Virus record (IMG/VR): IMGVR_UViG_3300032893_000043
Location: 1-63,405 of that record
Length of the DNA stretch: 63,405 bases
Source: a virus
Taxonomy: Duplodnaviria > Caudoviricetes
Strand: one strand, 5' to 3'
A model generated the notes under the pieces. That model had not been told where the DNA came from, made no database searches, and saw only the letters and a list, made by a program, of their open reading frames with translations. Within the stretch, counting starts at the first letter, position 1; the number at the start of each line of letters is the position of its first letter. The translations under genes and the position numbers were made by a program. Below, piece after piece: positions 2,521 through 58,898 of the stretch.

Positions 2521-3291
2521 GTGCTGACATCTTACGAAACCGATCTCCAAAATCTACTACAGCTTCCGCAAGCGCCGACGACGCTTTATCCAACGGCATC
2601 ACTCGACCGTTGGATCAACATCGCTCGCGGACAGCTCTCTGGCGAAGCTGAATGTATCCGCGCAATCGGAACCATACCAACTGTTGTCGGGCAGCGCGCT
2701 TACAACTTTTCGAGCATCACTTTCGGAACGCCGAGCGCGACGGGCATCCAGGGTGCGATCAACGTTCGACGAATCAGTTACAACGTCGGTGCGGGGACGC
2801 AATGGATGACGCCGCGCGAGTGGGAGTATTACGATCTCTACCATCTCAATAACGTGGTCCCGGTCAACGGGCCGCCGACCGTATGGGCACAGTATGCGCA
2901 GGGTGCCGCCACTCCGGCAAGCGGCTCCGCGGCCTCGGGGTCATTCTATATCGATCCGCCCCCGGACGCGGTCTATACACTAAATTGCGACTGCACCTGT
3001 TACCCGATCACGCTGACGAACGATTCGACGGTCGAGGCAATTCCCTATTTGTGGACCGACGCCGTGCCGTTCTTTGCCGCGTATTATGCGTTTCTGACGG
3101 CGCAGACTGGAGCGCGCACCGCTGACGCCGAGCGGATGTACGGGTATTACAAAGAGTTTGTGAACCGAGCTCGTCAGGCGTCAAACCCGAGCGTCAACCG
3201 TACGCAATACGAACAGGCGGCCGATCCCGCGTCGATCAATAAGCTTGGCGTGCAGCGCTCGATGCAAGGCGGCGGGGGCGGTGCGCAATGA
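2521..3291 (+). CDS. Head-tail adaptor-like protein (paralog 1)
   Basis: WINIAR N-terminal helix and IPYLWTDAVPFFAAY C-terminal motif typical of podovirus adaptor proteins; position. Confidence 0.65.
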   Translation: MLTSYETDLQNLLQLPQAPTTLYPTASLDRWINIARGQLSGEAECIRAIGTIPTVVGQRAYNFSSITFGTPSATGIQGAINVRRISYNVGAGTQWMTPREWEYYDLYHLNNVVPVNGPPTVWAQYAQGAATPASGSAASGSFYIDPPPDAVYTLNCDCTCYPITLTNDSTVEAIPYLWTDAVPFFAAYYAFLTAQTGARTADAERMYGYYKEFVNRARQASNPSVNRTQYEQAADPASINKLGVQRSMQGGGGGAQ

Positions 3292-4217
3292 CCACGCTGT
3301 TCGACTACCAGCAACAGGCGCAGCGCTTCCTTCGCGAGAAGAAGCAGGATCTGATCAACCCACAAGACTTGGTTGTTTACATCAACCGGGCGCGTCGCGA
3401 AGTCGCGATGCGAACGCAGTGCATTCGCGTTCTGACGCAGGTCAGCGCACCGATCGTCAGCGCAACTGTCATCACGCCAGGCTCGGGTTATAGCAATCTT
3501 CCGGTGATCGCGATCACGCCGCCGGATTTTCCGAGCGGCACGGGAGCGTTTCCGAATGGCGCGCAAGCGACGGCGCAGGCCATCGTGCAGAATGGGACGA
3601 TCGCCGCGGTCGACATCGTCAATGGCGGCTCGGGGTATTTTCAGCCGCTGGCGACGGTGACGGATTCGACGGGGACTGGTGCGTCGATATCGCTTTATAC
3701 GGGGCCGGTGAATCAGCTCAACGTGGCCCAAGAAGTCTACCCGTTTTCCGGCGTGTATCTTGGTGCAAATCCCGGCGTCAAATCAGTATTTGCGGTGCAG
3801 GGCATCAGTGTTATCTATCAAAATTACCGGTATTCGCTGCCAGTGTATAGCTTTACCGACTATCAAGCGATGATTCGGCAGTATCCGTTCCAATATCAAT
3901 ACGTTCCTACATTTGCTTCGCAGTACGGGCAAGGCACTTCCGGCTCTTTTTACGTCTATCCGTTACCGAGCCAAGTGTATCAATACGAGCTTGATTGTTA
4001 TTGTTTGCCTTCTGATCTCGCAACTAATAACGATTTTGAAGTAATACCTGACCCTTGGACCGACTCGGTTTCGTATTTCTCAGCGCATCTGGGAATGCTC
4101 GACATTCAGAATATGAACGCGGCAAAAATGTACTTGGAGTTGTTTGAAAAGCAGCTTGGCATTTACTCGCATTCCGCGCGTATCGGCCGGCGGGTCAACA
4201 TCTATGGAAGATATTAA
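3288..4217 (+). CDS. Head-tail adaptor-like protein (paralog 2) with inserted GSGY beta domain
   Basis: YINRAR and IPDPWTDSVSYFSA align with paralog 1; ATGA overlap. Confidence 0.65.
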   Translation: MTTLFDYQQQAQRFLREKKQDLINPQDLVVYINRARREVAMRTQCIRVLTQVSAPIVSATVITPGSGYSNLPVIAITPPDFPSGTGAFPNGAQATAQAIVQNGTIAAVDIVNGGSGYFQPLATVTDSTGTGASISLYTGPVNQLNVAQEVYPFSGVYLGANPGVKSVFAVQGISVIYQNYRYSLPVYSFTDYQAMIRQYPFQYQYVPTFASQYGQGTSGSFYVYPLPSQVYQYELDCYCLPSDLATNNDFEVIPDPWTDSVSYFSAHLGMLDIQNMNAAKMYLELFEKQLGIYSHSARIGRRVNIYGRY

Positions 4218-30663: not shown

Positions 30664-30679
30664 TTAAGTCCTTGTTAAC
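30664..30679. promoter_or_regulatory. CtrA-box-like site TTAA-N7-TTAAC
   Basis: TTAAgtccttgTTAAC immediately upstream of the exonuclease. Confidence 0.45.
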
Positions 30680-30714
30680 AGGGGCGCACCCATTTCCGAG
30701 CGCGCCCCGCTCGA

Positions 30715-31467
30715 CTATTTCACCATCCGATCGATGCCGAATCCCGGTTCATCCCACACGTCGATGATGAAGCGTCCCTTGCCGTGCGCAACTGCGCTGT
30801 TCGGGATGACTGCCATCAAAAACGGGTCGGGATTGACGACGATGTGAGGCGATGTGGTGTATTCCGTCACCAAAAAGACCGGCTTGCCAGCAGTGAAATT
30901 CTTTTCCACCAAGGCGATCTTCTTGAGGGCGTGCAGCGGCAGAGTACGCGAATAGGCAGGGGACCGCTGAGTGCGCCAGTCAATTGGCGTCGGCGTATGC
31001 TGGCGCATTTGATTATAGTTGCGGAAAGCATGGCTCTCGTAAAAATCGGACGACGTGACCTGCTTTTCGTTGCGGCCATAATGGCGGACAGAGGGGCGCC
31101 CAAACGTCATTTCGACATCGGCATCTTTCGGACGAACTGGGCACCAGTGCCAGCCGAGGCCGGTGGGATTGTCCTTAGCGGCGATGTTGTCCATGTACGC
31201 GACAACCTCTTGGAGATTGAAGGTGGGAATATCGTGCTTCATCAGAAAAACACGAAATTCCTCCACCAGCATATCTTGGTCTGAAATGCCGATTTCCTTC
31301 GCCACTTTTCGATATTCGGCAATGGCAGTCTCCGCCATCTCGTCAGTATCAATGCGCGGCGTAAGTTTCTTCGGTGCCGATTCCATGCGCTGAGCGGGTT
31401 GGTCGTAGACGACAACGCCGCCGTTATCCTTTGCTCCAGTCCATGATGCTAAGTTGAAAAGTGCCAT
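30715..31467 (-). CDS. Hypothetical protein
   Basis: 250 aa, AGGAGG RBS; PDPFL..WDEPGF C-terminus. Confidence 0.7.
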   Translation of the reverse strand: MALFNLASWTGAKDNGGVVVYDQPAQRMESAPKKLTPRIDTDEMAETAIAEYRKVAKEIGISDQDMLVEEFRVFLMKHDIPTFNLQEVVAYMDNIAAKDNPTGLGWHWCPVRPKDADVEMTFGRPSVRHYGRNEKQVTSSDFYESHAFRNYNQMRQHTPTPIDWRTQRSPAYSRTLPLHALKKIALVEKNFTAGKPVFLVTEYTTSPHIVVNPDPFLMAVIPNSAVAHGKGRFIIDVWDEPGFGIDRMVK

Positions 31468-31701
31468 TGTTAGACCCTCCTTCCGGGCCATTGTGGTTGC
31501 AGAACGAACCATTCAACGTAAGTAAGATAGATGTTGACGGCGGCCAGAATGGCGTTGACCACCGCCCACGCGCTTCGTCCCTGGGAATAGGCCCAGGCTC
31601 CGTTCGCTATTGCCGCCAGCATGACCAGTGGGCAGGCGATTCGCATAAACCAAAGCTTGATGATCCAGTTTCTAGGCATCATGTCACCCACTAAGCAGAA
31701 G

Positions 31702-31947
31702 TTAAGCGTTTATCGCTTCCCAAATTTCCAGCGCCGCCTTGTCATCGTCGCTCGTCATGCGGCAGACATCAGCTGCAGTTTTCGCGCCGGCATCTCTGTG
31801 CAAGTTGGCTCGCACGACAGCGATAGCCGCCGCGGCATGACGGGGCGTCGCGAGCGCCCGGAGGATTTTCATGATATCGACCGCCGCCTGATTGGTAGCG
31901 TCGAGTTTCCTTCCCGGCGGATCGCGATCAGAAGCGTGGAATCCCAT
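31702..31947 (-). CDS. Hypothetical protein
   Basis: 81 aa. Confidence 0.5.
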   Translation of the reverse strand: MGFHASDRDPPGRKLDATNQAAVDIMKILRALATPRHAAAAIAVVRANLHRDAGAKTAADVCRMTSDDDKAALEIWEAINA

Positions 31948-32313
31948 AACTTTCTAATCCCCAGTTAACAGATCACACGACGTTGTTTTCGGCTGGATTC
32001 GCCAAAATCTGTTCGGTTTCCCGGATGCGCTTGTCGAGCGTCGAGACCAAATCTTCGCCCATGCCGATGCCCTGGCGCGGTAGCAGATTCAGCACCTGAG
32101 AAATTTTCTCATAAGCCTCGGCTCGCGGCTGCAGATAATCGATCTGTTTTCGCAGCGACACGATTTCCTGCTTACAACGCTGCATCATATCGATAGCTTC
32201 TTTGTCGTGCATGGTGGCTCCTAGTTGTCCGGCGCGCGAGTAGATGTCGGTTTTAACATTTGAAACTATCGCTCTGGCGATAGCGTTCGCGGCAATCTCA
32301 GACGCGCTTTTGG

Positions 32314-32565
32314 TCATGGATTGGCCTTTGCAATTTCTGACCCGTGATGCAGCCCTTCGAGATAGGCCACTGTAATGACCTGCCACAGCTCTAAACACTG
32401 GCCCTTGAAGTTGCGGCGCATATTCTTCTCAACGCTGGGACCAACGATTGACCAAGCAGCCTCGAACTGCTCAATGGTTAAACCCATCTTTGAAAAGTCG
32501 GGGATCGGAACGACCGGCACCGGAGGTCCGAATGCGACAAAGTTGGGCTTCTTGAAATTTGTCAT
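32314..32565 (-). CDS. Hypothetical protein
   Basis: 83 aa, coupled to the downstream ORF. Confidence 0.5.
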   Translation of the reverse strand: MTNFKKPNFVAFGPPVPVVPIPDFSKMGLTIEQFEAAWSIVGPSVEKNMRRNFKGQCLELWQVITVAYLEGLHHGSEIAKANP

Positions 32566-32587
32566 CCGTTAATCTGTGGTTAGTCAG

Positions 32588-32812
32588 TTAGAGTTTTTGA
32601 GCGTCGTGAAGAACCGAAACATGCTTGCCCTCAAAATAATCCGCCCCATCCAATTTGCCCTCAATGACAAACCGGCGCGCCGCGCCGATAACCGGGCTTT
32701 GATAGGCTAGGATTGCATCCTCGGGCAGCTTGCCCTCGCGAATTGACGTATGCAGCCCACAGATGCAGCGGTAGGCGCGCTCAAGTTCTTTCCGAAGATC
32801 AATGTCAGACAT
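32588..32812 (-). CDS. Hypothetical protein
   Basis: 74 aa with GGGG RBS. Confidence 0.5.
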   Translation of the reverse strand: MSDIDLRKELERAYRCICGLHTSIREGKLPEDAILAYQSPVIGAARRFVIEGKLDGADYFEGKHVSVLHDAQKL

Positions 32813-33203
32813 GATTATGTCCCTTTGCGCTCATGGCATCATTTCCTCAATCGCATCCTTGGCCTGCTCAAACGTCCATTCGCCCTCAATCGCTCGTGTA
32901 AGATACCGCAGGGCCTGCTGTGCGTAGGCCGTCTCTATCCTCTCGGCGCGAGCCCATAGACATTCATCTTCGGCCTGTATCGCGGTAAGCTTTCTCAGCT
33001 GCTCCAATGTCATCTGTTAATTTCCAATCAAGCTTTTGGCGGCTCAGATACCAGCGACATTCGTTTGATCGCTTCGATCAAGCAGAGTCGGTCGGTTTCG
33101 TCGTTTGCCGTTTCAAGACGGCGCACGATAAGCTTCACAGCAAAATTGAAGCCCTCGTTCCAGGCTGATGTTTCTTCGGCCGTGCGTGGTTTCAGTTCCA
33201 TGA

Positions 33204-33473
33204 CTAAACTTCCGTGAGTGGAAGTTCTGGCAATGGCATCCAGTGTGTGGTGCCATACAGGGAACGTCCGTTACTGACGTTTTCTTTCCAGCATGCCGGC
33301 CGTGTACCGCCCCACGCTCCGATTGCAATGCTGTACTTTCCAGCGAGCAGAATCCGAGAACCGTCCTTTGGAGCCGTCTCAATCGGCTGCCACTTAAGCC
33401 GTGCCTGCAACTCCTCGATCTCCTTCATCGCATCCGGGAACGCGAAGCTTGTGTGCTCTGTGATCTGTCTCAT
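33204..33473 (-). CDS. DUF551-like small phage protein
   Basis: WQPIETAPKDG...THWMPLPE motif. Confidence 0.7.
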   Translation of the reverse strand: MRQITEHTSFAFPDAMKEIEELQARLKWQPIETAPKDGSRILLAGKYSIAIGAWGGTRPACWKENVSNGRSLYGTTHWMPLPELPLTEV

Positions 33474-33695
33474 GTGGGCTCCGTTAGTGGCCGGTTGCGG
33501 ATGCGTAAGCGTAGAGCGCCACGGCCGTCGCATAGAACGATATGCCGATAGCATCAATCCAGAGACACGCCCGAGGATTGGTATGGAACGTGAGGGATCG
33601 ATAAACCCCCCAGGCTGTGGCGCTCGCAACAAAAGCGGTAAAGAACCAAATCCAAACTGCGAACGTGAGCGGATGTGTCATCTGTTGATCTCGCG

Positions 33696-33929
33696 TTAGG
33701 CATTTCGCTTTGCAGCACGCCGGATGCGGTCGGCGATCTCTTGAGCGAGGCTGGCCTGACATTCCAATTCCTCGTATCGGTCGTAGTGGTCGGGATCGTC
33801 ATCATCGTCGTGAACACGTTTGGCATTGCGCATGATCGAATTAGCCACGCGCTCTGCGATTTTGGCGGCTTCTTCCATCGCCTCGCTACGGGCCAGTTTC
33901 GCCATCTGTCCAGCGGTTTGAATGCTCAT
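33696..33929 (-). CDS. Hypothetical protein
   Basis: 77 aa, EEAAKIAE motif. Confidence 0.5.
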   Translation of the reverse strand: MSIQTAGQMAKLARSEAMEEAAKIAERVANSIMRNAKRVHDDDDDPDHYDRYEELECQASLAQEIADRIRRAAKRNA

Positions 33930-34722
33930 GTGATCTGCTAAATCCTCGTTAAGCGTTTGGTGGGCGCCTACGCAAAGATCTTCGAAAGCGCGGCGGCAAT
34001 CCGTCGACGCGATTTCTTAGGCGCGTCGCTGAGCATGTCAGCGACCGTTTCCAGCAAACTCGCGTCGCTTTCGCTAAGGCCGACAAGCGCGGTCAACGCC
34101 AAACCAACATCGACCTTGTATGCGCGCGATGCCCCGATTTTCTTGGTCTTGCGCGGCTTTTTGATGCGCGCGCCCCCGGCCGGCTTTGCCGGTTCGGCAG
34201 CGGAGCCTGCTACGGCCTTTTTCGGCTTGGTGCCGCGGTTCTTGCCTTTCTTGCTCGTCGAGCCCTTGGCCGGCGTTTCCGGAGGCACAGGCGGCGCGTC
34301 GGGCGACGGCTGGAACGAAGCGAACGGGGCTTGTTGTTCATTGTCCACTGGACTTCTCCTCTTTGCGTTTAAAATCCTGACAACGAAATCGGGCGTCGGT
34401 CTTTTCACCGTAATTGAGCGAAGCGGCATTGCCGCATGTACCGTTCCAATCACCCTCCTTGATCCAAGGGCCTGCGCAACTCTCGCAGCAATTCGGCGGC
34501 CAACGCAACCACGAGGGCCTTACCGCCTCGGCCATGTCTTGCCCTTCCGGCACTCGCTCAGGATCTCGGGTTCCTTGCCGTCCTGGATCTCAACCTCGTA
34601 ATTGCACGAGAACTGAACGTGGCCGGCAACGCGCTGCCGCGTCTTCGGATCAACGACCACTGCCATGTCATTGCGCACGACGTCGCCGCACAAAGGGCAA
34701 GTGTCGGGGAGGGGGTGTTCGA

Positions 34723-41963: not shown

Positions 41964-42344
41964 CTAAAGCGGCGTATCAGCGCTGGAATGGGGAAGGCCG
42001 CTTAACCCGCGGCCTTTTCTTTTTGGGCGCCGGCCATGCGCCTCTAGCCAATTTATCAGCGTGTGGCCGAGACCAGGACTAGGGCGCAAATCAAATACGG
42101 GTGCCACACGTTCGCGTAAACAATCTATGGCCCATTGAGGGATATGGCGTCGGCCAGCTCGCCAGTGTTGAATTGCAGGCCAAGTGACGCGATTCTGGAA
42201 CAGAGCGCAGATGTCGGCGGGAGCACCACTCGGCGCCAGCGTGCGAATCAGCTTGTCCAGCGCGGCCGCGCTACCACTATCGGGGATCAAACGCCGAGGC
42301 ACCCTTTTGGGACTGCGCTCGATCGGCTGTGTTGCATCGTTCAT
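41964..42344 (-). CDS. Putative Cro-like HTH protein
   Basis: VTWPAIQHWRAGRRHIP helix. Confidence 0.45.
   Translation of the reverse strand: MNDATQPIERSPKRVPRRLIPDSGSAAALDKLIRTLAPSGAPADICALFQNRVTWPAIQHWRAGRRHIPQWAIDCLRERVAPVFDLRPSPGLGHTLINWLEAHGRRPKRKGRGLSGLPHSSADTPL
41994..42024 (+). terminator. Rho-independent terminator
   Basis: AAGGCCGC...GCGGCCTT followed by TTCTTTTT. Confidence 0.6.
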
Positions 42345-42639
42345 GCCGCATTTTACCGGCCGCGGCGCTGCGCAGTAGCTTTTGACGGCTACCACTGGGG
42401 GTTCGCAGGCGATTTTTCTCCTCGCTACTTTCAGTCTTACAAGACCGATAGCGAGCTTAGTGCCTTGTATTGCTTAGGCTTTCGGCGACCTGGCGAGCTC
42501 ACGCGGGAACTTTGCATGCGGCGATCGGTCGCAGCTACCGAGAGGTATTTAGACACCCGAAGGCCCGCGCGAAGAACGGAATCGAGGGCACCCCACCCTG
42601 CGCCACCCCAAAAACTTCCAAAAATTTTTTCTGAAAATT

Positions 42640-42656
42640 GTAGTAGCCGCGACTAC
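42640..42656. promoter_or_regulatory. Operator GTAGT-N7-ACTAC (copy 1)
   Basis: GTAGTagccgcgACTAC upstream of the RAMP-like gene. Confidence 0.75.
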
Positions 42657-42703
42657 GCGAGCCGTGCTACATCGCTTCGACGCACTCAAAAAGGAGACGC
42701 ATC

Positions 42704-43333
42704 GTGGCCGAGCGCACAATCGAAATTCCCGAAATCAAACTTGATCGCATGACCGTGAACGTCGTTGGTACGTCTCCGCTGCTAACCAATCGCTTCGGCG
42801 AGAACGCGATTGCTTCGATCGAGAACAAACAGCAGAAAAAAGCGAAGGGTGTGAAGGAGGCGCGCGATCCCGAGGCGGAATTTCTTGAGAAGCTGCACGT
42901 CATAAAGGCTGGCAAGACACCGTTGGAAGGTACGTTCGGTTATCCGTCGATCGGTATCAAAAAATGCCTGGTGGTTGCCGGCGGCCGTTTTGCCGACGAA
43001 AAAATGACGCATCTACGCGGCGCCATCAACATTCTTGGAAGCTTGATCGAGATTCGATCGCCGGCTCCGACGATGCGTACCGACACTGTTCGTTTGCAGG
43101 GTGGCGTCACTAGCATCGCCTATCGCCCGCAGTTTTGGCCGTGGGAGATGGAAATACCGGTCGTGTTTAACGCCGGCATTATCGGCCCTGCGCAGATTCT
43201 CAACCTTTTCCAGATTGCTGGATTTGCTGTAGGCTTCGGCGCGTGGCGTCCCGAGCTGAACGGCGTGTTCGGTCAATTTGTTTTGAAGAATTCCGGCGAG
43301 GTCTCGACGAAAGAGAAGACCAAGGCGGGATAA
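42704..43333 (+). CDS. RAMP/Cas7-like RNA-binding protein (Vipr-like effector)
   Basis: N-terminal VxGTSPLLxNRF strand, YPSIGIKKC, and C-terminal Gly-rich loop AGFAVGFGAWRPELNGVFGQF; AGGAG RBS; directly followed by the periodic array. Confidence 0.7.
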   Translation: MAERTIEIPEIKLDRMTVNVVGTSPLLTNRFGENAIASIENKQQKKAKGVKEARDPEAEFLEKLHVIKAGKTPLEGTFGYPSIGIKKCLVVAGGRFADEKMTHLRGAINILGSLIEIRSPAPTMRTDTVRLQGGVTSIAYRPQFWPWEMEIPVVFNAGIIGPAQILNLFQIAGFAVGFGAWRPELNGVFGQFVLKNSGEVSTKEKTKAG

Positions 43334-43336
43334 AAA

Positions 43337-43792
43337 GCCAAGAGCAGAGTCGATTTGATAGGCGTTGCACAGACCATAAGACCGCAGACGCGATGCAGAA
43401 AAGTACGGCAAACACCAGATGTGCTTTGCAAGGACGTGAGGTCAACTGAAGCGAAAAGTTTATTTTGTTGGTTTGCCAAAAGAGGAGTGCAGCACGGAAT
43501 AGTCAGGACAAGTCCTGCAGCGATGTTAGTTGAAATGAAAAGTTTAATCCATTTGCCATGTGAAAAGAGCAGCCGCGTGAACATGTGACACGACGACACC
43601 AGATGTTACCGGAATAGAAATGAAAAGTTTGTTTGATCCATTTGCCAGAAGAGAACACTCGATGTGCGGCGCTTTGCGTTGAGGCGATAGGAAAACACAA
43701 CAAATGAAAAGTTTCATTTTTGATTTGGCAGAAGAGAACAATAGCTGTGCAGCGTTTTGAGTCGATAGCAGTTGCAAACAAATGAAGTGAAA
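43337..43792 (+). ncRNA. Array of six pentamer-periodic tracts (xG[A/C/T]-NN); putative guide RNAs
   Basis: Tracts at 43341, 43397, 43481, 43561, 43650 and 43733, each of 11-14 pentamers; tracts 2-5 end in GAAAAGTTT and are followed by a T-rich..TTTG[C/G]CA linker. Confidence 0.8.
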
Positions 43793-44850
43793 TGTCTATT
43801 TCTCTCAAAGAGTATTTCGCGCTCGCCGGCTCTAATTTCACAAACGACGATGCTAGGGTCATTGGGCCGGTACTGCAAGAATTGGTGCACGCCGGGCAGT
43901 CGCGACCAAACGAGATTGTCGACGCCGCGCGCTCGACGAATTCCCCGCTGCACGAATATTTCGAGTGGAATGACCAGCGCGCTGGGCAGCTGTATCGCGA
44001 AGGCCAGGCCCGCGACATGGTGCAGGCTATTCGCGTCCGCGTCGTTCCGCGCGAGCAACCCAAAGAACCGCGGCAGTATAAAGTTACGGTTCAGAAGACA
44101 GAGTGGAACACCCTGAGCGACGTCACCGTTCGTAACGAGATCGATGTTCTTGATGGCGCGAGTCTGGCGCTACGCGCGCTTGACGAATGGATACGAGTAT
44201 TCGGTACGCTGGCACAAGCCAAGGAAGTTGCTGATATCTTGCAGCCGATCCTTAATCAGATTTCTGAATTTAAAGAGGAATGTCGCGGCGAGATCCCACC
44301 GAATGACGTGGTTGCGGTTTTTCAAGATTTGCAGCAGATCGAGCAAGCTTGTCAGAAGCTGATCGGGCTACGTGACTATGGCGAGCAGACACAGTATCTG
44401 ATTGAAGCGATCGACGATGCGTGGAAGGCGTATGGGCAGCTGGTTGAAGATAAGAAAGCGCGCTTGACGGTTGTCGAACAGGAGAACGAGGAGCTACGCG
44501 AGAAGATCGATTTTTTGGAGCGCTTGTTTATTGGCGACCAGCTTATGCCTCGGCAATTGCGGCTGACGAAGCAGGAAGGCAAAGTTGTTGGTGCGTTGCT
44601 AAACAACAAGACGGTGAACCGTGAAGCCATCCACTATATTTTGTATTCGGACAAACCGGATGCTGACGAGGCGGACATTAAGATTGTTGACGTTCTGGTT
44701 TGTAAAATTCGTCCGAAGCTAGACCGGTTCGGCATCAAGATCGAAAGCCTTTGGGGCGTAGGTTACCAGATGCCTGATGACTCGCGTAAGCGGCTGCAAG
44801 GTTTGATCGAGGCTGACAAATCGCACCCGCTTGAGGAAGGGATGATCTAA
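43792..44850 (+). CDS. Array-associated protein fused to a CtrA/OmpR-like winged-helix domain
   Basis: N-terminal IVDAAR..SPLHEYFEWND..YR..QAR domain; C-terminal LTKQE..KIVDVLVCKIRPKL..IESLWGVGY. Confidence 0.7.
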   Translation: MSISLKEYFALAGSNFTNDDARVIGPVLQELVHAGQSRPNEIVDAARSTNSPLHEYFEWNDQRAGQLYREGQARDMVQAIRVRVVPREQPKEPRQYKVTVQKTEWNTLSDVTVRNEIDVLDGASLALRALDEWIRVFGTLAQAKEVADILQPILNQISEFKEECRGEIPPNDVVAVFQDLQQIEQACQKLIGLRDYGEQTQYLIEAIDDAWKAYGQLVEDKKARLTVVEQENEELREKIDFLERLFIGDQLMPRQLRLTKQEGKVVGALLNNKTVNREAIHYILYSDKPDADEADIKIVDVLVCKIRPKLDRFGIKIESLWGVGYQMPDDSRKRLQGLIEADKSHPLEEGMI

Positions 44851-44884
44851 AATAATATCTCCCCGGTAGTTGCCACCACTACAA
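44851..44884 (+). repeat. 34-bp direct repeat copy 1 (contains operator copy 2, 44866-44882)
   Basis: 33/34 identical to 45943..45976. Confidence 0.9.
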
Positions 44885-44905
44885 ACAGTCTGGTACTCTC
44901 GTAAA

Positions 44906-45943
44906 ATGTCGCTGGCTTACTACAACGAGATCGACCCATACTGTGCGCAGTGGCTGCGAAATCTCATCGCAAAAAATCTGATCGCGCCCGGTGTGGTCGA
45001 TGAAAGGTCGATCCTTGATGTCAAACCTTACGAGCTCGAACCCTACACCCAGTGCCACTTCTTCGCCGGTATCGGCGGATGGTCTTACGCATTGCGACTC
45101 GCGGGTGTTGCCGATCATCGAGAAATTTGGACTGGAAGTTGTCCTTGCCAGCCTTTCTCCACGGCAGGCCGCCGCCGCGGGTTTGATGACGAGCGACACT
45201 TGTGGCCATACTGGAGATATCTCATTGCGCAGCGACGTCCTCCAACAATCTTTGGAGAGCAGGTTGCGTCGGCAGCTGACTGGCTCCGACTTGTGCGAAG
45301 TGACCTGGAAGCCCTGGACTACGCCGTGGGGGCAGTCCCTATCGAAGCCGCGAGCGCGGGTGCGGACCACCTTAGAGATCGGTTCTGGTTTATGGCCTAC
45401 CATACGCGCCAACAAGTGGGGGCCGCCGGACAGTCACGGGAACGTAGCGATGTGGCCCACAGCAGCAGCAGCACGCGATTACAGGAGCGAGAGCGCGACG
45501 GAGGAATTCAACGAGAAACACTGGGCGCACAGCCGCGGCAAGACGTTGCCAATGCAGGCGCTGCACGCGACATGGGCGACGCCAACTTCTTTGAGCGGTG
45601 GTTCGGAAACCAGCAATCCGCCTGGCAACAGCCGGAACAACAACGAGATCAGACGCCACGCTTTGTGGGCAACGGCAGCTGCCCAGGAGGCGGGCGGAAC
45701 GGCGGAACAGTTTTTGGAACGCAAGCGCAAGGCAGTGGCGAACGGCTCGACATTGGGCGTCAGTCTGACGAGCCTGAACCTTCAGGCTGGATCATCGGTG
45801 CCGACGGAAAAGCGCGGCGCGTTAAATCCGGAATTCGTTTGCTGGTTGATGGGTTTCCCAATCGCGTGGGTCTCCTGCGGGGTTTCGGTAACGCGATTGA
45901 CCCGCGGCCGGCGGCGCAATTCATCAAAGCCGCGCTCGACTGA
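44906..45943 (+). CDS. DNA cytosine-C5 methyltransferase
   Basis: FFAGIGG (I), SCPCQPFS (IV), GEQV (VI), HLRDR (VIII), GFGNAI (X). Confidence 0.9.
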   Translation: MSLAYYNEIDPYCAQWLRNLIAKNLIAPGVVDERSILDVKPYELEPYTQCHFFAGIGGWSYALRLAGVADHREIWTGSCPCQPFSTAGRRRGFDDERHLWPYWRYLIAQRRPPTIFGEQVASAADWLRLVRSDLEALDYAVGAVPIEAASAGADHLRDRFWFMAYHTRQQVGAAGQSRERSDVAHSSSSTRLQERERDGGIQRETLGAQPRQDVANAGAARDMGDANFFERWFGNQQSAWQQPEQQRDQTPRFVGNGSCPGGGRNGGTVFGTQAQGSGERLDIGRQSDEPEPSGWIIGADGKARRVKSGIRLLVDGFPNRVGLLRGFGNAIDPRPAAQFIKAALD

Positions 45944-55979: not shown

Positions 55980-58898
55980 ATGTCAGGCTGGTCCCGCGCA
56001 AAGCGCCTCAAGGTCGAGGCCGCGTTCTACAAATATTTGGATACGTGCTTCGTTAATTCGAAGGACGCCGGGCGTATCTGCCTCGGCAAAAATCTTTACC
56101 AAGGTCAGCGCGACTGTATCACCGGCATTTTCGACGCGCTCGAAGCCGGCATCCATAACATCTACATCCTGAAATCCCGCCAGCTCGGCATCTCGACCAT
56201 CATCCGCGCGCTGTCCATCTTCTGGCTCGGTGTTCACCAGGGTCTCAAAGGCGCTCTTGTATTTGACACCGCGCCGCACAAAGAGTCGGCGCGTAAAGAA
56301 CTCGTGGTAATGCTGCAGAATCTGCCCGCGAGTTTGAAATTCCCAAAGGTCAAGGGTACAGGGGCAGGCAATCGCGACAGCCTCGAACTGGTCAACGAGT
56401 CGTCGATGATCTTCATGTCGGCGGGCGTGAAGAAAAGCAAGTCGTCGGGCACTCTCGGCCGATCCGAAGGTCTGACAATGGCGCACCTGTCGGAATTGTG
56501 CTCCTACGACAATGACGAAGGTTTGAAGTCGTTCGAGCAGTCGCTGTCCGAAATTCATCCTGATCGGCTTTACATCTACGAGTCCACGGCTCGGGGATTC
56601 AATAGTTGGTACGTACTTTGGCGCCGCGCTAAAAAGGACGAGGCGCATTGCAAGTGCATCTTTCTCGGCTGGTGGTCGAAGCCGTCGCAGACAATCCAGC
56701 GCGACGAACTGGATTTCCAGACTTACGGCATCGCGCCGCCGACCGACAAGGAAATCGAAAAAATTAAAGCCGTCAGGGAACAGTATGGTCACGAGATCAC
56801 GCCGGAACAACTCGCTTGGGTTCGTCGAAAGTTTGATCCTAACTACAGCGATGAGGAAGACGCTGATGATGCAGACGGCGAAGACGATTCGGTTATGCTC
56901 GCCGAACAGGCGTGGACTGAAGAAGAAGCGTTCCAGCAAACGGGAGCGGTCTTTTTTGGATCGAAACAGCTCACCGATCAGACCAATGCTCACGTCAAGC
57001 ATAAAGCCAAGACCTACATGTATATCGCTGGCGACGATTTCACTGCTATGCGGGTATACCCTGCTCAGAACATGCGTTCGGTTGAGCTCAAGGTTTGGGA
57101 GGAGCCCGAGATTGGTGCGCAATACGTTATGGGCATCGACCCGGCTTTTGGCGAAAACGAGAACAACGATCGATCCTCGATCGAGATATGCCGGTGCTAC
57201 GCTGACGGGCTTGATCAGGTTGCAGAGTATGCTTGGCCGTTGATCACGACGCGTCAATTCGCGTGGGTGATTGCCAGTCTTCTTGGTTGGTATGGCCAAG
57301 GCGCCGAGATTAGCTACATCCTTGAGATCAATGGCCCTGGATCCGCGGTGTTCAACGAACTCAAGTCGCTGAAATTCCAGATCGACAATGATCGCTCTGC
57401 ACGCCGCGATCTGGAAGAACGCGGGCTGCTCAACGTCTTCAAGAACGTCAAGACCTACATCTACACGCGCCCGGATGCGATGGGTGCGGGATCCAATTGG
57501 CATTGGGAATGCTTGGCATTGGATACAAAACTTCCGACGCCCACTGGATGGACTACGATCGGTGGAGTTAAAGCAGGCGATAGGCTTTTGGGAACGGACG
57601 GTAGTCCTTGCGTCGTACTTGGCGTCTCGCCGGTTCATATAAACCGCAACTGTTATAAGCTTGTGTTCGACGACGGTTCGGAGATCGTTGCGGATGAAAA
57701 CCATTTGTGGAATGTCACGTACCGTCCTTTTCATAACGAGGTAAAAACGCTTCGGACGAAAGAATTAATTGCCGATTTTCATAATGTGACGGTTGCCAGA
57801 GCTTTTGATTTACCCGAAGCAAGTCTTCCTATTGATCCTTATGTTCTTGGTGTTTGGCTTGGAGATGGGAACGCCGGATCAGCTTCCTATTTTTCGTCGG
57901 CTTCAGATATAGAATCGATGGCCGCTAATCTGAAAGCCTGTGGTTACGACCTGGGACCAGTGCGGACTGATCGGACTGTTTGCAGGCAACTTATAAAAGG
58001 ACTCTATGAGCAGTTGTCAGCCATCGGTCTTTTAAAAAATAAGCACATTCCAGAACCATATTTGCGAGCTTCTTATTCGCAACGACTCGCGTTGCTGCAA
58101 GGCTTGATGGACACGGACGGTAACGCGGGTAGCGGTCGAAATAGCCAACAATGTGGATTTTCGACATCTAACGAGCGTCTCAAAAATCAGTTTTGTGAAT
58201 TGCTTCGCTCTTTCGGGATAAAAGCAAAATATTGTCGGCGAGAAGCTAAATTGTTGCGAGCGGCTAATGGAAAGCAGTACACCAGTGAAGCTTGGTATCA
58301 ATTTTGGTTCACGGCTGATCCTGGTGTTCGTGTTTTTAGGCTAGAGCGCAAACAAGCTGCGATAGATTCTGTAAGTCGGAAATTTCGTCAGCGCCGCATG
58401 CACAAAATACTTTCGGTTGTGCCGGTTAAGTCCGTCCCGGTTAAGTGTTTGGAAGTAGATAGTCCTGATCGGATGTTTCTGGTCGGCGAAGGAATGGTCC
58501 CGACGCACAACACAAACGTCAAGCGCAAAATTCTGATCCTGGAGCGCATGCGGGATTTCGTCTCGACCGGCAAGCTTCATATTCGCTCTGCCTCGCTGAT
58601 CGAGGAAATGAAGACGGTTGCGCGCGAGGGCGACTCCATTGGTGCACCACAGAGCATGCGCGACGACCGCGTGATCTCCATGGCTTTGGCCGCCTATTAC
58701 TGGGACACCAAGATTAAGAACAACCTGATTACCCAGCGCCGGACGCGAGAGGCGGAAGCGGCCCGGAAGCGGGCTTCTATCGTCGATCAGGTCGCCTTGT
58801 TCAATCGCAATCATCTTGATATGTTCTTTAAACAGAAGCAGGCGGTGCGGGCGGTTGCGCATCGTACCCAGATGCGGAATGCCTGGAGGTATCGATGA
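55980..58898 (+). CDS. terL: Terminase large subunit containing an intein
   Basis: ILKSRQLGIST Walker A, ESTARG coupling motif, GIDPA and DDRV nuclease motifs. Confidence 0.9.
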   Translation: MSGWSRAKRLKVEAAFYKYLDTCFVNSKDAGRICLGKNLYQGQRDCITGIFDALEAGIHNIYILKSRQLGISTIIRALSIFWLGVHQGLKGALVFDTAPHKESARKELVVMLQNLPASLKFPKVKGTGAGNRDSLELVNESSMIFMSAGVKKSKSSGTLGRSEGLTMAHLSELCSYDNDEGLKSFEQSLSEIHPDRLYIYESTARGFNSWYVLWRRAKKDEAHCKCIFLGWWSKPSQTIQRDELDFQTYGIAPPTDKEIEKIKAVREQYGHEITPEQLAWVRRKFDPNYSDEEDADDADGEDDSVMLAEQAWTEEEAFQQTGAVFFGSKQLTDQTNAHVKHKAKTYMYIAGDDFTAMRVYPAQNMRSVELKVWEEPEIGAQYVMGIDPAFGENENNDRSSIEICRCYADGLDQVAEYAWPLITTRQFAWVIASLLGWYGQGAEISYILEINGPGSAVFNELKSLKFQIDNDRSARRDLEERGLLNVFKNVKTYIYTRPDAMGAGSNWHWECLALDTKLPTPTGWTTIGGVKAGDRLLGTDGSPCVVLGVSPVHINRNCYKLVFDDGSEIVADENHLWNVTYRPFHNEVKTLRTKELIADFHNVTVARAFDLPEASLPIDPYVLGVWLGDGNAGSASYFSSASDIESMAANLKACGYDLGPVRTDRTVCRQLIKGLYEQLSAIGLLKNKHIPEPYLRASYSQRLALLQGLMDTDGNAGSGRNSQQCGFSTSNERLKNQFCELLRSFGIKAKYCRREAKLLRAANGKQYTSEAWYQFWFTADPGVRVFRLERKQAAIDSVSRKFRQRRMHKILSVVPVKSVPVKCLEVDSPDRMFLVGEGMVPTHNTNVKRKILILERMRDFVSTGKLHIRSASLIEEMKTVAREGDSIGAPQSMRDDRVISMALAAYYWDTKIKNNLITQRRTREAEAARKRASIVDQVALFNRNHLDMFFKQKQAVRAVAHRTQMRNAWRYR
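57510..58511 (+). mobile_element. Intein with LAGLIDADG homing endonuclease (334 aa)
   Basis: CLALDT...ADENHLW...LGVWLGDG...LQGLMDTDG...VPTHN followed by Thr; lower GC than its flanks. Confidence 0.92.

Follow-up and report, generated by a model that had tools for sequence, protein, structure and literature searches.

What does a phage gain by joining, in the accessory protein of an RNA-guided silencing locus, an N-terminal domain of unknown function to a winged helix that resembles the DNA-reading end of CtrA? This question is raised by the gene at 43792..44850 (plus strand; 352 aa) of the window, that is, the whole stretch of 63,405 nt that was analysed (IMG/VR record IMGVR_UViG_3300032893_000043), where it follows a RAMP-type gene and a repeat array. 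Judged by its sequence, this gene is vap, the accessory gene of a VIPR (Viral Interference Programmable Repeat) locus, and the phage that carries it is uncultivated. The explanation towards which we lean is that its product, Vap, combines a VIPR-specific N-terminal domain with a captured CtrA-type regulator that would act as a constitutive dimer and give silencing an extra, sequence-reading grip on DNA.

VIPR has been described as a system of RNA-guided viral gene silencing related to CRISPR (10.64898/2026.04.26.720920). According to the accessible text of that preprint, the Vipr RAMP protein polymerises on vrRNAs, which consist of GGY/NN pentamers and a 3′ tail, and the Vipr-vrRNA complex binds double-stranded DNA (dsDNA), which it reads by a non-contiguous code, and acts as a repressor of rival mobile elements. 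Six accessory genes, vap1-6, are named in the available parts of the VIPR preprints, their products being predicted to bind DNA in types II, VI and VII and being nucleases or helicases in types III-V. It has been reported that vap1 enhances protection and that its deletion lowers plaquing on a satellite lysogen by ~10^4 (10.64898/2026.04.26.720920), and the Discussion of the VIPR structure preprint, in the part available, calls the role of the accessory proteins open. VIPR itself is already known from these 2026 preprints, and the novelty of the locus considered here lies in the changed form of its accessory protein.

The first component of the locus is the upstream gene at 42704..43333 (plus strand; 209 aa), which is assigned as vipr, encoding the RAMP/Cas7-like effector. 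Its product matches phrog_4652 (E 8.8e-19) and no Pfam family, and the Vipr ORF (open reading frame) of phage SUSP1 falls in the same group as well (E 1.4e-96). A Vipr profile made from 56 homologues matches PDB entry 36pp_D, 'SUSP1 Vipr protein', with E 3.8e-14 over nearly the full length (20-197/4-189), as compared with E 5.6e-4 for the window sequence by itself, and the alignment of SUSP1 Vipr to the profile by hhalign has a probability of 98.2%. The AlphaFold2 (AF2) model of the window protein reaches a predicted local distance difference test (pLDDT) of 91.7 and returns 68 PDB matches at E<=0.001 in Foldseek; among the matches listed, all are chains of type III/VII CRISPR effectors (Csm, Cmr, Cas7-11). 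By these criteria, the protein counts as a homologue of the published Vipr, a minimal RAMP with a single RRM.

The second component is the spacer of ~460 nt between vipr and vap (43334-43795), in which the autocorrelation of G at lag 5 is 0.29, as against 0.00 +/- 0.045 with a maximum of 0.17 in 2000 shuffles. This periodicity defines a putative vrRNA array at 43336..43797 (plus strand), consisting of six period-5 tracts (43336-43375, 43397-43461, 43481-43545, 43561-43630, 43650-43694 and 43733-43797) of about 8-14 pentamers each. A conserved tail element, GAAAAGTTT..TTTGCCA.AAGAG, comes after four of the six tracts (43453-43484, 43537-43569, 43622-43653 and 43706-43736), and the direct repeats of the array are spaced 80-89 nt apart. 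In a logo of 231 pentamers, collected from the window and from three further fetched loci (L002, L003 and L166; L numbers designate such loci throughout), position 1 is a base other than G in 93%, position 2 is G in 87%, position 3 is A or C in 91%, and positions 4-5 are unbiased. The repeat unit is read as HGM/NN, with three semi-fixed and two variable bases, which keeps to the 3+2 scheme of VIPR, the trinucleotide being non-canonical. A pentamer array with tails thus adjoins vipr, its consensus being non-canonical; other non-canonical repeats, NNNNG, YNNNG and TGH/NN, have been reported in the accessible text of two preprints (10.64898/2026.04.26.720920; 10.64898/2026.10.21.760802). Because a Vipr RAMP gene lies upstream and the spacer constitutes a non-canonical vrRNA array, the locus 42704..44850 is classified as a VIPR system, with the predicted order vipr, array (about five guides) and vap. 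Expression of vrRNAs from this array would be expected.

A number of further observations concern the array. The first guide region (43336-43461) has double length, with two period-5 tracts parted by a degenerate tail-like stretch, and is the sole guide to be conserved in all three of the window, L002 and L003; a loose resemblance of the opening codons of vap to a fifth tail is mentioned as a possibility only. No Rfam family matched 42400-44000, and the scan for promoters and terminators yielded nothing useful. Two exact 18-base guide patterns were scanned in IMG/VR and gave 0 and 1 matches. The single match, in L246, is probably a chance hit and not a vrRNA target: it does not extend into the flanks, and the phage concerned is unrelated and richer in AT. 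Between the window and L002/L003, which are otherwise unrelated phages, Vipr shows an identity of 91%, as against just 41-42% for Vap, and a DNA similarity of ~80% runs from the start of vipr through the first guide tract and ends inside the array (window 42705-43461 versus L002 6928-7684 and L003 6090-6766). This contrast in protein identity, together with the end of the DNA similarity, suggests a mosaic locus shaped by modular exchange, with a putative breakpoint in the array.

The third component, vap itself, begins within the array. A reading of the same DNA made from its letters alone (the sequence-only reading) had claimed that the start codon of the gene overlaps the last pentamer, and this is borne out: the last tract (43733-43797) ends in ..TGAAG TGAAA TGTCT, so that the vap ATG overlaps the last pentamer and its TG lies inside it. 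The ORF is real, and the ATG at 43792 is taken as the right start because 15 aligned homologues conserve its N-terminus, MSIS.KEYF. PHROGs split the protein into phrog_15946 (unknown function; aa 27-103, E 5.8e-13) and phrog_31800 (transcriptional regulator; aa 261-330), and the only Pfam family called is PF00486, Trans_reg_C (aa 255-327; 27.1 bits versus a cut-off of 26.2). In our description, Vap consists of four segments, all encoded on the plus strand: an N-terminal domain (aa 1-166; 43792..44289), a helical extension (aa 167-214; 44290..44433) common to relatives of 226-284 aa that lack the winged helix, a coiled-coil-like helix (aa 215-247; 44434..44532) to which standalone proteins (117-140 aa) align with their N-terminal helix, and a winged helix of the OmpR/CtrA type (aa 255-345; 44554..44826) whose recognition helix reads KIVDVLVCKIRPKL. 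The AF2 model of Vap, built with 15 homologues, is confident only at aa ~20-80 (pLDDT ~70-80) and aa ~250-345 (~90). Its middle is modelled with low confidence as helices at 114-141, 144-165, 173-187, 192-218 and 221-247, the third and fourth of which fall to the helical extension and the last to the coiled coil, as would be expected from the helical or coiled-coil linker that the sequence-only reading had foreseen. Vap is accordingly described as an N-terminal domain and a helical extension joined to what its sequence indicates is a complete captured coiled-coil/winged-helix regulator.

The N-terminal phrog_15946 domain, for which we coin the name VapN, ties the protein to VIPR. The motif SPLHEYFEWND, around which such a domain had been proposed, corresponds to aa 51-61, and Y56, F57, E58 and W59 are invariant across 66 VapN proteins; the VapN part of Vap aligns with 65 Vipr-partner proteins of about 150-260 aa. 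The sequence-only reading had named the co-occurrence of this domain with the RAMP gene among its checks. Among 80 relatives kept out of the 150 that the family alignment brought up in viral contigs, a Vipr gene adjoins the VapN gene at 76/80 loci by profile search and at 65/80 by tblastn with the window Vipr; since 55 of these 80 loci went into the Vipr profile, the former count holds partly by construction and the latter is the independent one. Three of the four loci without an adjoining Vipr have their VapN gene at most ~720 nt from a contig end. The order vipr then vap, on the same strand, holds in 71 of the 76 loci and is reversed in 5, the usual Vipr partner has 147-206 aa, and stop and start codons often overlap. 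VapN is accordingly an accessory gene consistently linked to vipr. Its family comprises 14,499 representatives (50% identity) at E<=0.001, or 13,002 at E<=1e-10, and the best 150 of the 14,499 all measure 142-213 aa; its members are proteins of about 160 aa. Cultured phages also carry vipr/VapN pairs, namely gp39/gp41 of Gordonia phage UmaThurman and gp51/gp52 of Mycobacterium phage Saal, all annotated as hypothetical. Between gp39 and gp41 of UmaThurman, gp40 (L163 3140-3463) is an annotated coding sequence of 107 aa for a Gly/Arg-rich repetitive peptide, and probably represents a vrRNA array wrongly annotated as a gene.

As to the nature of VapN, a Pfam search of the 66 proteins found no family common to any two members, a search of the VapN profile against the PDB returned nothing below E 0.1, and the structure neighbours of VapN in the Atlas are viral hypothetical proteins. 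Relatives of Vap are recovered from viral contigs with a family alignment, a scan with the single sequence having returned none, and a scan of genome contigs with the full-length Vap alignment found none. A complex prediction for Vipr (alignment A2) with VapN (alignment A3) scored 0.00, which gives no verdict and carries no weight either way.

The C-terminal module belongs, by a PF00486 score above the cut-off and by its fold, to the OmpR/PhoB winged-helix family. The top PDB matches of the Vap model in Foldseek are all OmpR/PhoB effector domains (ArlR, SaeR, RitR, CssR and PhoB; root-mean-square deviation 2.0-2.6 Å over ~75 columns), and their E-values are weak (~0.02-0.3) because the match covers a small part of a poor whole model. 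Full OmpR/PhoB effector domains carry an N-terminal beta-sheet ahead of the helical core. This sheet is missing here: DSSP assigns no strand between aa 248 and 273, and in alignment A5, which comprises Vap, standalone proteins and CtrA, ~25 residues ahead of the LT..E helix of CtrA have no counterpart in Vap. Within the family, the likeness to CtrA claimed by the sequence-only reading is confirmed. CtrA is the best response-regulator model of NCBIfam for the window Vap (26.3 bits; the next has 17.7), and it is matched by 14/15 members of the Vap family, with a best E of 1.6e-13 as against 1.3e-7 for PhoB. Alignment A5 reveals a shared recognition helix, KIVDV[FL][VI]CK[IL]R.K, followed by a shared wing, W-G-.-G-Y, and the helix residues K, I, D, V, C, K, R and K are invariant across all three groups. 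The CtrA sequence quoted in the sequence-only reading proved close to that of the true CtrA genes fetched, which in alignment A5 read KIVDVFICKLRKKL ... IETVWGRGY. No receiver domain was detected in Vap by Pfam or by the response-regulator models of NCBIfam, as had been claimed. CtrA membership, which entails a receiver with a phospho-accepting aspartate and a full-length equivalog match, does not extend to Vap; true CtrA genes (L136, L148 and L142) reach 377-400 bits, above the cut-off of 350. A literature search for receiver-less CtrA-like proteins of phages found none by title or abstract, and the accessible part of one related paper deals with host CtrA sites in phages, not with phage-encoded CtrA-like proteins (PMC9437464).

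The sequence-only reading had named an assembly artefact as the circumstance that would undo it, and this worry has been laid to rest. The fusion is real because 13 other full-length homologues with PF00486 exist in a large protein database (36-48% identity by BLASTP; 35-47% in the alignment) and because fused vap genes occur at four distinct loci with context: the window, L002 (the same as L167, identical over the array), L003 and L166. One more full-length homologue lacks a Pfam call, and 17 shorter ones (226-284 aa; 61-80% query coverage) end before the winged helix and carry no PF00486. In 4/4 loci, vipr and the array lie directly upstream of the fused vap, and the neighbours of the fused gene differ between phages. 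The fusion is rare, as 2/80 metagenome loci carrying the winged helix are fused and 2/80 viral VapN loci carry the winged helix. The 17 shorter proteins, together with the one encoded at L004 7992-8780, represent an intermediate form of Vap, with VapN and the helical extension and without winged helix or any Pfam domain, which could either have preceded the fusion or have been left behind by its loss.

Homology of the three parts of the protein, tight vipr-VapN linkage and recurrence of the fusion are established, and on this ground the following model can be proposed. By analogy with the SUSP1 system, Vipr would polymerise on each vrRNA, and the resulting ribonucleoprotein would bind matching dsDNA of a rival element and block its transcription. 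VapN would be the VIPR-specific part of Vap and would work together with the Vipr-vrRNA complex. One clade of VapN proteins appears to have captured a complete small regulator composed of coiled coil and CtrA-type winged helix. We infer that the coiled coil would make Vap a constitutive dimer, replacing the dimerisation that the receiver drives upon phosphorylation, and that the winged helix would need no phosphorylation to bind duplex DNA and would have a CtrA-like preference for half-sites. Vap might in this way help to hold or direct the silencing complex, for instance where rival prophages or the host have CtrA-type promoters. The earlier proposal of an accessory subunit of an RNA-guided complex is backed by genomic association (the Vipr RAMP upstream, the vrRNA-type array, the linkage at 76/80 viral loci and the published position of vap genes) and stands to that extent.

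Several points weigh against this model. The contact between Vap and Vipr that it supposes is argued from genomic association, and the PF00486 score of the window Vap is marginal. No vrRNA target was found in the data covered: a target scan, in which the two variable bases of each pentamer were compared under the published 1-nt-skip rule with the window and all fetched loci, gave best matches of 13/16 up to 21/28 bases, not above those of the control skips 0 or 2; skip 3 recovers the array itself only. The boxes TTAA-N7-TTAA, at which a CtrA mimic had been supposed to act, are not enriched in the window: one perfect copy is present versus 0.21 expected, a number reached by 20/100 shuffles, and 10 copies with <=1 mismatch versus 7.8 expected. 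VapN was compared in sequence with one of the vap1-6 products, SUSP1 Vap1 (a 146-aa ORF after SUSP1 vipr, taken as vap1 from the record and from the accessible description of the locus in the preprints), and no similarity was detected: hhalign assigns a probability of 0.14%, hmmsearch finds nothing at E<=10, and the two belong to different PHROGs (phrog_15946 versus phrog_5926). A search of SUSP1 Vap1 against the PDB found no solved structure. The published results on Vap1 therefore transfer to VapN by locus position only. Moreover, no vipr or VapN gene was found within 3 kb of the winged helix at any of 80 genome loci (0/80), and both are absent at 78/80 metagenome loci that carry it. The module thus occurs alone in many genomes without VIPR, and could therefore act independently in the window too.

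Among the near-matches to the box, 6/10 cluster at 30664-33952, the sole perfect one lying at 30664, in short gaps between consecutive small ORFs of the minus strand, and several of these six have a Shine-Dalgarno-like core on that strand. They probably reflect the composition of junctions between stop codons and ribosome-binding sites, not CtrA boxes.

Independent action of the C-terminal module is the main rival explanation, and one that we regard as somewhat unlikely. It holds that the module is an ordinary phage transcription factor, or a competitor or mimic of CtrA, fused to vap by mere neighbourhood, and that it regulates either genes of the phage (the neighbouring one for a C5 DNA methyltransferase, for example) or CtrA-controlled genes of the host. 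The relatives of the module give this explanation its substance. A genome scan with the C-terminal alignment, with one genome per species, retained 80 of 121 relatives, mostly from Alphaproteobacteria, which fall into three groups: true CtrA, ~170-aa proteins with another N-terminus, and standalone proteins of 117-140 aa (12/80), composed of coiled coil and winged helix, for which CtrA is also the best NCBIfam model. The standalone proteins are closer to the window than true CtrA is, with 35-44% identity to aa ~215-340 and E-values of 2e-17 to 2e-29, as compared with ~5e-8 for true CtrA, and the C-terminal 138 aa of Vap match a whole standalone protein of a kind common in alphaproteobacterial prophage-like regions. 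Methyltransferase genes are found near standalone genes (downstream in L085, L091 and L105, and further upstream in L084), and one starts 19 nt past the vap stop codon in the window. The fusion, however, is kept in four distinct loci whose neighbours differ, with no methyltransferase after it in L002 and L003; it always stands alongside vipr and the array, and it is intact down to 35-47% identity. As for the phosphorylation-independent CtrA mimic acting on TTAA-N7-TTAA that the sequence-only reading had offered as its second option, the CtrA-like helix and the lack of a receiver agree with it, and its supposed sites and closest kin do not, the boxes not being enriched and the nearest relatives being standalone proteins. 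We have found no account in the literature of the receiver-less coiled-coil/winged-helix family to which these standalone proteins belong (L084-L105; ORFs around 2900-3300).

A bolder version of the model that we prefer, and an unlikely one in our estimation, would make Vap a fixed reader of CtrA boxes, a constitutive dimer welded to a VIPR accessory subunit, such that CtrA-type promoters would be the target of silencing, its gate or the site of its reinforcement. If this were true, recognition would require two keys, an RNA code and a protein-read box, and would tie inter-phage warfare to the cell-cycle regulon of the host.

Autoregulation of the VIPR locus by Vap, through binding of the winged helix to array or promoter DNA that would set the expression of vrRNA, vipr and vap, receives still less credence from us. 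OmpR-type domains bind direct repeats, and 4-5 conserved tails spaced 80-89 bp apart lie just upstream of vap, the last guide even overlapping its start codon. These tails are also conserved where Vap lacks the winged helix (e.g., L004), and Vipr binding explains them as features of the RNA; in addition, no CtrA-type box was found upstream of vipr in the three distinct fused loci inspected, and no sigma-70-like promoter within 42300-45000. Finally, that Vap is a replication initiator acting on iterons of a phage origin is hardly credible, since the location of vap in the replication region and an Atlas match of aa 5-112 to RepA-type WH1 domains at TM 0.34, under any meaningful bar, stand against a 5-nt internal code with hypervariable dinucleotides unlike iterons and a Vipr neighbour with a solved homologue; that code and the identity of Vipr led us to discard the view of the array as iterons or as a replication origin.

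The genome around the locus is consistent with that of a complete phage. The record has direct terminal repeats and is estimated to be a complete genome (63.4 kb), and its gene content includes a primase/helicase, a DNA polymerase, a helicase and a large-terminase-like gene, vap being located in the replication region formed by the first three. The terminase-like gene is an ORF of 972 aa at 55980-58898, of which aa ~504-857 only match large-terminase PHROGs, leaving a long N-terminal extension. Downstream of vap, the C5 DNA methyltransferase gene (PF00145, phrog_363) occupies 44870-45943 and echoes the methyltransferases that follow several of the standalone winged-helix genes. The host is probably an alphaproteobacterium, possibly one of the Hyphomicrobiales, because of the taxa in which the winged-helix module occurs, of the closest DNA polymerases from cultured phages, those of Rhizobium phages (31.6% identity), and of the sole match within the phage collection, Rhizobium phage RHph_X2_30.

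The locus is of interest on several counts. The commonest Vipr partner found here is VapN, a very large phage family with no sequence relation to the sole studied accessory protein. One of its clades has a module recognisable as DNA-reading, and the specificity of this module lends itself to guessing and testing, which offers a handle on what accessory proteins do at the target. Receiver-less coiled-coil proteins of the CtrA type are widespread in alphaproteobacterial mobile elements, and could mimic the master regulator of the cell cycle or interfere with it. Were the fusion incidental, the finding would be a well-annotated VIPR locus with a non-canonical repeat.

Comparison with known systems places Vap among four kinds of protein. 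With CtrA (NCBIfam NF045991), it shares the recognition helix and the following wing; unlike CtrA, it lacks a receiver domain, and so a phosphorylation site, it scores 26.3 bits against a cut-off of 350, it lacks the ~25-residue stretch ahead of the helix-turn-helix, and the identity of the aligned part is just 30-35%. The standalone proteins, some of which are labelled 'OmpR family regulator' or 'CtrA' by JGI, align with Vap end to end, coiled coil included; unlike Vap, they are autonomous proteins of 117-140 aa whose genes lie near ParB-like genes (the three upstream ORFs tested at the scanned loci are all ParB-like, phrog_1033) and DNA-methyltransferase genes, with no vipr or VapN nearby. 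UmaThurman gp41 and Saal gp52 represent canonical VapN, as they follow a Vipr gene, contain the YFEW motif and match the profile with E-values of 3e-43 and 1.4e-38, but they measure 140-151 aa and have no C-terminal extension. Lastly, the accessible text on the type II VIPR of Escherichia phage SUSP1 (10.64898/2026.04.26.720920; 10.64898/2026.10.15.759431) allows Vap to be set beside SUSP1 Vap1: both are encoded on the same strand as, and next to, vipr and a vrRNA array, both are small helical phage proteins, and both are described as or predicted to be DNA-binding. The array stands between vipr and vap in the window, whereas SUSP1 vap1 directly follows vipr, and the window Vap, with its 352 aa, differs from SUSP1 Vap1 in the added coiled coil and CtrA-type winged helix.

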